Below the pieces are notes generated by a model. That model worked only from the letters and a program-made list of their open reading frames with translations. It did no database searches and was not told where the DNA came from. This document shows, one piece after another, positions 34,160-36,175 of a stretch of 64,000 nucleotides of DNA (positions are counted from its first letter, which is position 1; the number at the start of each line of letters is the position of its first letter). The DNA comes from Trypanosoma brucei. Taxonomy: Eukaryota. Made by a program: the position numbers and the translations under genes. Location: positions 1,728,001 to 1,792,000 of the forward strand of contig CP000071.1 in assembly GCA_000002445.1 (NCBI GenBank). The letters are read 5' to 3'.

Positions 34160-34456
34160 ACTTTGGTGGGTTCCTTTTTTTTCCTTTTGTTATTTATTTA
34201 GTTTTGTTTTTAACCATCCAATTGTTAATATCTAAAAGGAAAGGGGGGTGGCCGGCCCTCCCACAAGCCACCCATGCGGGTATCAGCTCTCTTTCTCAAG
34301 TGCATAACTGATGCGTCTCTTTTTGCAACCCTCTCCGTTCGCCTGCTCATTTTTTCTTTTACCTTTTCTTTATCCTCACATCGCTGAATCGCGTGCTGAA
34401 CAACACTACCAAATACATTAGAACACACAATGGGGACCATCAGCCGCCCTGGAGGG

Positions 34457-34534
34457 ATGCGGCCTAAGTGGCACAAGAAGCGCATAAAGCGCTTAAAGCG
34501 CCGACGACGACGCATGCGCCAGCGCTCCAAGTAA
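34457..34534 (+). CDS. RPL41: 60S ribosomal protein L41 (eL41), 25 aa: MRPKWHKKRIKRLKRRRRRMRQRSK. Copy 1 of 3
   Basis: An exact match to the universally conserved L41 micro-protein. An in-frame ATG 27 nt upstream would give an MGTISRPGG extension. Confidence 0.85.
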   Translation: MRPKWHKKRIKRLKRRRRRMRQRSK

Positions 34535-35003
34535 GCGCCCTGATGCATCGGTGAACATTCCTCGTGGTGCCGTTCAGTGCTCCTTTTTTGCGAGTTTCGC
34601 ACGCCGAACTCCCGATCAACGAAACGCATGCACATGTGCGTGCAACCTATTTATGGGTACGGAAACAAAGCATTTGATGTCTTCCCCCCTTTTTTCGTCG
34701 TCTAGTTACCTTTCCATTTTTCTACTTCTAGAGTGGAAACAAGTGTCAATGTTTTCTTCCCCTTTGGAGGTATGCCTGTGCTATAATGTTCCTTTCTTAT
34801 ATTATTGTCTTGGCCCTCACTCCTTTCTAACTGCTGTGGGCGACAGTCATACGCGCCCGGTGTTTGACTGCCGTCTGCTCACTTCAACCAACCTCCTGTT
34901 AACGCTTTCTCTTTTTTTTCTTTTGCGCTGCCTTTGTTTGTAACGTCTAAAACTACCAAATACATTAGAACACACAATGGGGACCATCAGCCGCCCTGGA
35001 GGG

Positions 35004-35081
35004 ATGCGGCCCAAGTGGCACAAGAAGCGCATAAAGCGCTTAAAGCGACGACGACGACGCATGCGCCAGCGCTCCAAGTAA
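35004..35081 (+). CDS. RPL41: 60S ribosomal protein L41 (eL41), copy 2 of 3
   Basis: Identical 25-aa product, with synonymous differences (CCC/CCT for Pro, CGA/CGC for Arg) from copy 1. Confidence 0.85.
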   Translation: MRPKWHKKRIKRLKRRRRRMRQRSK

Positions 35082-35519
35082 GTGGACAGTCGAACCGCTG
35101 AACGATCCCGCGGTCGCGCGAATCAGTGTCGCTCACTTGTCTTGTCGCGCATGGATTCGTGGCAGGGGAACAACCCAAGTGTGTATTCACCCTTATGATT
35201 TGTTCCTTTTTTTTTTCTTCTGTTTTTGATACGCCGAGGAGCGGCCCTTTTTTCCCGTGTGGTTTGTTCTTTTGTTAGCGCTCTCCTTCAATACTGCGTG
35301 GTGTTCTGTTCACCGTACGGCAGTAAACCATCTCGGGGGCGGGGGGGGGGGTTCCCTTTTCCAAGGCTCACCTCACCAGAAGCCCGTGACAGTTTTTCTT
35401 ACTCTCTGCATCTTTCTTATCGACGGACGGCTCCCCATTGCTTTTTCTTTGCTTCCTTGCTTTCTTTATTTACTCTAGTCAGAAGGTGAAGGATGGGGAC
35501 CATCAGCCGCCCTGGAGGG

Positions 35520-35597
35520 ATGCGGCCCAAGTGGCACAAGAAGCGCATAAAGCGCTTAAAGCGCCGACGACGACGCATGCGCCAGCGCTCCAAGTAA
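35520..35597 (+). CDS. RPL41: 60S ribosomal protein L41 (eL41), copy 3 of 3
   Basis: Identical 25-aa product. Its 3' flank (gtaagcgccctgatgcatcg) is the same as copy 1. Confidence 0.85.
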   Translation: MRPKWHKKRIKRLKRRRRRMRQRSK

Positions 35598-36175
35598 GCG
35601 CCCTGATGCATCGAAAAGAGGTGCAATAAAGCGCGCTGGCGGCCGCCTCGGCGCCCCGTTTTGTCCGATACCTGGTTCGTACTGAGCCATCTCGCGCCTT
35701 AATATTTTTCTTTTGTTCTGGGAAGGCGTCTTAGGAGGGCATCCGATTGTACCGTTTCAGTGTTTTTGGCTGCTGCTTCTCCTCTACTACTATGTTTTGT
35801 CTCCTTCAGTTTTTTCCCTCTCATTCTTTGCCTCCCTTTTTGCAGGCTCCTGCAATTGGAATGGCTACGAGGTTTTGGAAGAAGGTCAACTGCCAGAGGA
35901 TGGGGGAAGAAGTCTAAAAGTAATCAGGGGAAAAGACAGCAGCAAAAAAAACATAACGGAATGTCTGGGTGAGTTGAGGCCCCTCTCGGGTGCCCGCCAA
36001 CGTCACTCTCTGGCTGTCTGCTTTTTTTTTTGTTTCGATTCCTCGCCTACAATGTGGACGGTAAGGGCCGCGTGCTTTCTTATTTTTCTACACAACTCAT
36101 CTGTGCACCTTCACCACCATTTCTCTTTCTTCTGCTTTCCCCTGTAATGATCTCGCTTCTGAAAGGCCGTAACTA

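Follow-up and report, generated by a model that had tools for sequence, protein, structure and literature searches.

A tandem array of three eL41 genes in Trypanosoma brucei and its probable 34-residue product

Directly downstream of RPL12 on chromosome 8 of Trypanosoma brucei lie three short open reading frames (ORFs) for the ribosomal protein eL41 (also called eS32), each with two ATG codons in the same frame. The question raised by this locus is which of the two starts the protein, that is, whether each gene yields the canonical 25-residue eL41 or a 34-residue form with a nine-residue N-terminal extension, and, beyond that, how the three copies come to be nearly identical. The window analyzed here is the whole stretch of 64,000 nt taken from contig CP000071.1 (positions 1,728,001 to 1,792,000 of the forward strand; GenBank assembly GCA_000002445.1), and coordinates refer to this window unless stated otherwise. 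The evidence makes it very probable that the locus is a tandem array of three genes for the cytosolic ribosomal protein eL41 and that each gene yields the 34-residue, Euglenozoa-type form. The array, its transcripts, and the 34-residue form are already known, and the finding is correct but ordinary. Its main value lies in annotation quality, the tiny eL41 genes having been missed in the original TREU927 annotation.

The eL41 array downstream of RPL12

The three ORFs, each of 105 nt (34 codons and a TAA stop), lie on the plus strand at 34430-34534 (copy 1), 34977-35081 (copy 2), and 35493-35597 (copy 3), with start-to-start intervals of 547 and 516 nt, and all three encode MGTISRPGGMRPKWHKKRIKRLKRRRRRMRQRSK. 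The canonical eL41 Met is codon 10 (at 34457, 35004, and 35520), and the in-frame upstream ATG that a sequence-only reading of the locus had pointed out (here called ATG1) is present 27 nt 5' of it in three of three copies, the extension codons occupying 34430-34456, 34977-35003, and 35493-35519. Copy 1 starts 270 nt past the stop codon of its upstream neighbor, RPL12 (uL11; Tb927.8.6030; 33665-34159, plus strand), a 164-residue ORF that is identical to T. brucei TREU927 AAZ13367.1 and carries the Pfam domains PF03946 (Ribosomal_L11_N) and PF00298 (Ribosomal_L11). The 34-residue product scores 33.3 bits with PF05162 (Ribosomal_L41), whose cutoff is 22.3, and its residues 10 to 34 cover all 25 positions of the profile. 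Together, these ORFs and domain assignments confirm the initial description of three tandem eL41 genes, spaced as given above, just after RPL12.

The 25-residue core is very basic, 17 of its 25 residues being Arg or Lys, and it shares the pattern MR(A/P)KW.KKR.(K/R)RLKR.RR.MRQRSK with yeast, human, and plant eL41/eS32, which is 25 residues long and has no N-terminal extension. The yeast, human, and plant genes are dispersed, intron-containing, and individually promoted and do not form a polycistronic tandem array. In the trypanosome ribosome structures PDB 7ASE (T. cruzi; chain 7ASE_D), 8OVA, and 8OVE (both T. brucei), the eL41 chain and the 34-residue sequence show 100% identity. An exhaustive search of a representative database returned six matches, and in five of these an extended L41 lies within a longer, over-called ORF; with a database of that size, so short a query does not reach 25-residue relatives.

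As had been noted from the sequence, the copies differ only synonymously, and they do so at just two sites: at ORF nt 36 a Pro codon is CCT in copy 1 and CCC in copies 2 and 3, and at ORF nt 72 an Arg codon is CGA in copy 2 and CGC in copies 1 and 3. The CGA specific to copy 2 is also found in the orthologous copy of T. b. equiperdum, whose independent assembly (GCA_003543875.1; 99.1% identity over 8.1 kb) likewise has three copies, spaced 547 and 515 nt apart and annotated at the orthologous locus as three 34-residue L41 genes carrying PF05162. The copy number of the array is thus borne out by a second assembly, and collapse or expansion of the array during assembly is unlikely, because the repeat is only about 105 to 150 nt long and the spacers are unique.

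All long ORFs of the window that are not nested in larger ones lie on the plus strand, and the array sits within one plus-strand polycistronic unit, just after RPL12. Three antisense ORFs over the Arg-codon runs were considered as genes and rejected, since they would lie antisense within this unit. The copy-1 minus-strand ORF (34225-34635), the sole antisense ORF scanned, had no Pfam match, in keeping with the earlier opinion that the ORFs on the minus strand are artefacts. Nothing in the whole window matched Rfam, and therefore no snoRNA or other known RNA accounts for the conserved segment.

Start codon and length of the product

One way to read the 27 nt between ATG1 and the canonical Met is as a noncoding 5' leader or Kozak-context element, the product then being the 25-residue eL41 translated from the second ATG. 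This reading can appeal to the length of eL41 in most eukaryotes, which is 25 residues, to the Pfam model, which spans residues 10 to 34 only, to the 25-residue gene called by the annotators of Leishmania donovani, and to the presence of AG dinucleotides between the two ATGs. Four independent lines of evidence, namely, deposited ribosome chains, conservation boundaries, codon pattern, and mRNA structure, argue instead that the product has 34 residues.

Deposited ribosome chains carry the extension. The Leishmania chains have a homologous one, MGTVSRPRGMRPKW... in 8A3W (6AZ3 begins at Gly2), and the Leishmania eL41 chain differs from the T. brucei protein at 3 of 34 residues (I4V, G8R, and R24L). 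The eL41 chain of Euglena gracilis in 6ZJ3 reads MGSISRPRGMRRKW..., with the extension MGSISRPRG. Overall, a nine-residue extension of the pattern MG(T/S)(I/V)(S/T/P)RPxG directly precedes the core Met in T. brucei, T. cruzi, Leishmania, Bodo saltans, Euglena, and environmental contigs. In line with these chains, Shalev-Benami et al. (2017; PMC5693986) described Leishmania eL41 in density next to h44 and reported that eL41 is extended at its N terminus in L. donovani and T. brucei, along with three genomic copies in Leishmania. The protein deposited as the kinetoplastid and Euglena chains is the same as that encoded here, and what the present analysis adds are the genomic boundaries, the acceptors, and the codon test.

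The sequence identity common to all three T. brucei copies runs from the A of ATG1 to one base past the stop (TAAG), and the likeness of copy 3 to copies 1 and 2 starts at the A of ATG1. In B. saltans, three 105-nt ORFs are 100% identical, the sequence directly 5' of ATG1 is unrelated, and only TTT plus a purine is common 3' of the stop.

DNA for comparison across species came from B. saltans and four environmental kinetoplastid-like lineages. Five lineages entered the codon test, namely, T. brucei, Bodo, and three environmental ones (contigs L003 to L008). Within codons 2 to 9 of the extension, the third position varies in eight of eight codons, the first in three of eight, and the second in two of eight, and the variation includes a switch of Ser codon family (AGC/TCC/TCG). 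Summed by the Nei-Gojobori method, pN/pS comes to 0.27 in the extension, against 0.21 in the core. Changes among kinetoplastids are thus mostly at third positions, and the peptide MGT(I/V)(S/T)RPxG is kept, whereas a sequence-specific RNA element would not be expected to tolerate changes at all eight wobble positions together with a Ser codon-family switch. Judged from this pattern, the extension evolves as coding sequence under purifying selection that is about as strong as that on the core. Since ATG1 is in frame with the core, with no stop in between, and the cross-lineage variation shows codon periodicity, neither a separate upstream ORF nor a 5' leader regulatory element fits the segment.

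The structure of the mRNAs points the same way. Trans-splice acceptors were predicted as the first AG after the longest polypyrimidine tract of each copy. For copy 1 the tract lies at 34329-34385 and the first AG at 34420-34421, 8 nt before ATG1; for copy 2 the tract lies at 34903-34941 and the AG at 34967-34968, again 8 nt before ATG1; and for copy 3 the tract lies at 35431-35476 and the AG at 35477-35478, 14 nt before ATG1 (all on the plus strand). There is no ATG between the predicted acceptor and ATG1 in any copy, and ATG1 stands in a context with A at -3 and G at +4. A short distance from AG to ATG1 is also seen in Bodo and in most environmental contigs.

Kolev et al. (2010; PMC2936537) have published three T. 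brucei L41 transcripts at the same locus and report their confirmation by Northern blot. When 1,728,000 is subtracted from the coordinates given there for Tb8.NT.93 to Tb8.NT.95, the transcripts fall on the three ORFs, and in those coordinates the published array is no different from the one described here. As listed in Tables S6, S7, and S13 of that paper, Tb8.NT.93 extends from 1762415 to 1762818 on chromosome 8 (window 34415-34818; major poly(A) site at window position 34784), Tb8.NT.94 from 1762963 to 1763379 (window 34963-35379; major poly(A) site at 35324), and Tb8.NT.95 from 1763474 to 1764050 (window 35474-36050; major poly(A) site at 36037), all on the plus strand. By the published figures, the L41 mRNAs are abundant, as are those of other ribosomal protein genes: a cell has about 35 molecules of Tb8.NT.93, 59 of Tb8.NT.94, and 86 of Tb8.NT.95, about 180 in all, and about 71 of the mRNA of RPL12, whose major poly(A) site is placed 67 nt past its stop. 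The offset of 1,728,000 was calibrated from the poly(A) site and 3' untranslated region (UTR) length given by Kolev et al. for Tb927.8.6030 (1762226/67), Tb927.8.6040 (1764985/90), and Tb927.8.6050 (1766132/179); the calibrated stops equal window positions 34159, 36895, and 37953 plus exactly 1,728,000, and there is accordingly no net indel over the array relative to that reference. The published transcript starts lie 15, 14, and 19 nt 5' of ATG1 for copies 1, 2, and 3, respectively. Because the predicted acceptor lies only 8 to 14 nt upstream of it, ATG1 is the first AUG of the mature trans-spliced mRNA, with minor use of internal acceptors possible.

With ATG1 being the first AUG after both the predicted and the published 5' ends, in a context of the kind given above, and with deposited chains that include the nine residues, a noncoding leader followed by a 25-residue product is barely credible. 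The sequence-only reading had suggested that the leader is functional, either as a UTR or Kozak element or as a true extension. The second of these options is the one that stands: the codon pattern, the chains, and the 5' ends all speak against a UTR or Kozak element, and the evidence decides for a stretch of 27 nt that would form a real N-terminal extension, part of the ribosomal protein.

Several points nevertheless weigh against a uniform 34-residue product. The published transcript starts sit 5 to 7 nt upstream of the nearest AG and are therefore approximate, and the RNA-seq reads of Kolev et al. (2010; PMC2936537) came from T. b. rhodesiense YTat1.1 and were mapped on the TREU927 reference. 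Although the deposited eL41 chain sequences include the extension (from Gly2 in 6AZ3), a deposited sequence can exceed the residues modeled, and eL41 of Giardia is annotated as longer than its density supports. Every copy also has internal AGs at ORF positions +12 and +23 (34442 and 34453 in copy 1, 34989 and 35000 in copy 2), the use of which would remove ATG1. Finally, what the extension does and the idea that three copies serve dosage, both considered below, are inferred.

The internal AGs bear on the proposal that the locus makes a mixture of 34- and 25-residue proteins, by leaky scanning or by trans-splicing at an internal AG, possibly varying by copy or by life cycle stage. Heterogeneity of trans-splice sites is common in T. 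brucei, as reported by Kolev et al. (2010; PMC2936537), the UTRs and abundances differ among the three copies, and conservation of the second Met is strict, which may, however, have a structural cause, this Met being the ancestral start as well. We nevertheless regard such a mixture as quite improbable. The context of ATG1 is strong; the internal AGs of copies 1 and 2 lie 56 to 87 nt past the end of the polypyrimidine tract, with an earlier AG on hand; the extension is under purifying selection as strong as that on the core; and there is no direct evidence of a 25-residue product in any kinetoplastid. A minor 25-residue isoform arising by leaky scanning or alternative trans-splicing, perhaps in one copy or at one stage, is very unlikely for the same locus; if it did exist, it would give rise to ribosomes differing at the decoding-center bridge eB14.

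For the 34-residue product, we propose the following route. Each copy gives rise to its own short mRNA with a polyadenylated 3' end, and the spliced leader would be joined to it at the first AG that follows the polypyrimidine tract. Translation would start at ATG1 and therefore yield a 34-residue eL41 composed of the 25-residue basic helix and the nine residues MGTISRPGG. The initiator Met would probably be removed, because Gly follows at position 2 and the 6AZ3 chain begins at Gly2, leaving GTISRPGGMRPK as the Met-less N-terminal peptide. N-myristoylation of Gly2 was considered and set aside, as GTISRP has Arg at the critical position of the PROSITE-style rule G-{EDRKHPFYW}-x(2)-[STAGCN]-{P}.

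As to what the extension does, apicomplexan eL41 offers a parallel. In Plasmodium, Toxoplasma, and Babesia, as here, a lineage-specific N-terminal extension is attached to the 25-residue core, and that of Plasmodium falciparum inserts in an 18S rRNA pocket, anchoring the protein. The apicomplexan extension has 14 residues, compared with 9 here, and shows no detectable sequence similarity to it, the PDB alignments beginning at query residue 9 or 10; presumably, the apicomplexan and Euglenozoa extensions arose independently. By analogy with Plasmodium eL41, the extension studied here probably touches 18S rRNA at additional points close to h44 and the decoding center. The identical deposited chain and the Leishmania density lend indirect support to a position of the T. 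brucei protein at the ribosomal subunit interface, in bridge eB14. In the Leishmania ribosome, eL41 adjoins h44 and the aminoglycoside (paromomycin) pocket, and a parasite-specific extension is therefore of some interest for drug selectivity, a point already made in the structural literature.

Concerted evolution of the coding sequence

Trypanosomatid gene arrays, such as those for tubulins, histones, and other ribosomal proteins, consist of head-to-tail copies in one polycistronic unit, with homogenized coding sequences and with copy number setting expression. The eL41 array differs from these classic arrays, which repeat a whole unit, in that its repeat comprises little more than the 105-nt coding sequence, each copy having spacers and UTRs of its own. 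The idea that the copies have conserved flanks survives only in part. Copies 1 and 2 share 25 identical nt directly upstream (34405-34429 and 34952-34976), and copies 1 and 3 share 16 identical nt directly downstream (34535-34550 and 35598-35613), but the other spacer sequence aligns no better than shuffled sequence; the upstream pair of copies 1 and 2, which contains the 25-nt block, is the only one that scores clearly above it.

Near-identity confined to the coding sequence could result from purifying selection alone or from very recent duplication, with no gene conversion. The protein is indeed extremely constrained, and the persistence of copy-specific synonymous variants, such as the CGA of copy 2, between TREU927 and T. 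b. equiperdum indicates that homogenization is not continuous. Selection on the protein does not readily explain why synonymous sites, too, are nearly identical among paralogs (2 of 105 nt differ in T. brucei and none in Bodo) when the spacers cannot be aligned and the orthologs of different lineages diverge heavily at such sites. Within-genome identity among paralogs is 98 to 100% in T. brucei and Bodo, whereas pS between T. brucei and Bodo reaches 0.29 for the core and 0.80 for the extension. Recent duplication would leave spacers that are alike, and the three-copy arrangement after RPL12 is common to Bodo and reported for Leishmania. An origin free of gene conversion is thus unlikely. The synonymous near-identity of the paralogs as against the divergence between lineages, the unalignable spacers, and the mosaic sharing of flanks together argue for gene conversion or unequal exchange limited to about the coding sequence, which would keep the copies nearly identical while the spacers and UTRs drift. 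The concerted evolution first suspected from the three copies alone is upheld by these comparisons.

The array in B. saltans, a free-living bodonid, lies on CYKH01001954.1 (locus L002, 3097-4458) and has RPL12 followed by three tandem 34-codon L41 genes (at 3725, 4010, and 4354) with unrelated spacers. Kolev et al. (2010; PMC2936537) mention three unannotated tandem L41 genes in L. braziliensis. The occurrence of RPL12 plus three L41 genes in Bodo and of three copies in Leishmania suggests that the triplication is old, although the three copies in Bodo, Leishmania, and Trypanosoma could also be independent duplications and not one ancient, homogenized array. The Bodo layout is one small addition to what was known, and it fits concerted evolution of the coding sequence. 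From Bodo to Trypanosoma, the arrangement of RPL12 and three L41 genes makes a tidy, unsurprising case of concerted evolution limited to a coding sequence of 105 nt. Since RNA polymerase II (Pol II) promoters for single genes are lacking in this organism, the three copies would most simply serve dosage.

Other arrangements occur in environmental kinetoplastid-like contigs (L007, 1454-6669; L003, L004, and L006). L41 lies there in a tandem unit of about 2.55 kb that is repeated at least three times and has the order L41, a minus-strand ORF of 176 to 194 residues, and a 334-residue ORF. Short arrays of L41 only adjoin genes for RRM proteins, and in contig L005 just two L41 copies come after RPL12. 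In T. brucei, G-runs are present in the 3'UTR/spacer sequence between L41 copies, at 35337-35351 and 34243-34250 (gggggcggggggggggg and ggggggtgg), and one spacer G-run has a different length in TREU927 and T. b. equiperdum.

Annotation of eL41 genes and neighboring features

In the TREU927 GenBank annotation, the numbering AAZ13367/68/69 leaves no room for L41 genes. Gene models for eL41 are inconsistent elsewhere, with 34 residues in T. b. equiperdum, 25 residues without the extension in L. donovani, and an artefactual 68 residues in T. melophagium. The tail of the last model (KAH9597067.1), HEAQVAQEAHKALKATT..., looks like a second L41 copy translated in the +1 frame, a sign that the spliced model may be spurious. 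The source annotation of B. saltans gives its three L41 genes 35, 37, and 34 residues, two of the starts being wrong. The boundary and codon evidence presented above offers a simple genomic rule for calling the 34-residue eL41 across Euglenozoa. A full-text literature search found nothing relevant on Tb927.8.603* identifiers or on ribosome profiling of L41 in T. brucei.

Around the array, a 391-residue ORF lies upstream of RPL12 (32191-33366, plus strand). It contains the P-loop GDNGVGKTT and has only subthreshold Pfam similarity, to Torsin and AAA-type domains; by these sequence features, it may encode a divergent AAA/torsin-like ATPase. Just 3' of the array is Tb927.8.6040 (36176-36895; 239 residues; Pfam PPR_3), which is split over two frames and unannotated in T. 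b. equiperdum (locus L001, 5746-6461), owing either to an assembly error that shifts the frame or to a pseudogene particular to this strain. Farther downstream, a 253-residue protein encoded at 37192-37953 is identical to T. brucei TREU927 AAZ13369.1. By the calibrated offset, two more novel transcripts listed by Kolev et al., Tb8.NT.92 and Tb8.NT.96, fall in the window at 5220-6079 and 45449-46148, respectively, with about 1 to 4 RNAs per cell.

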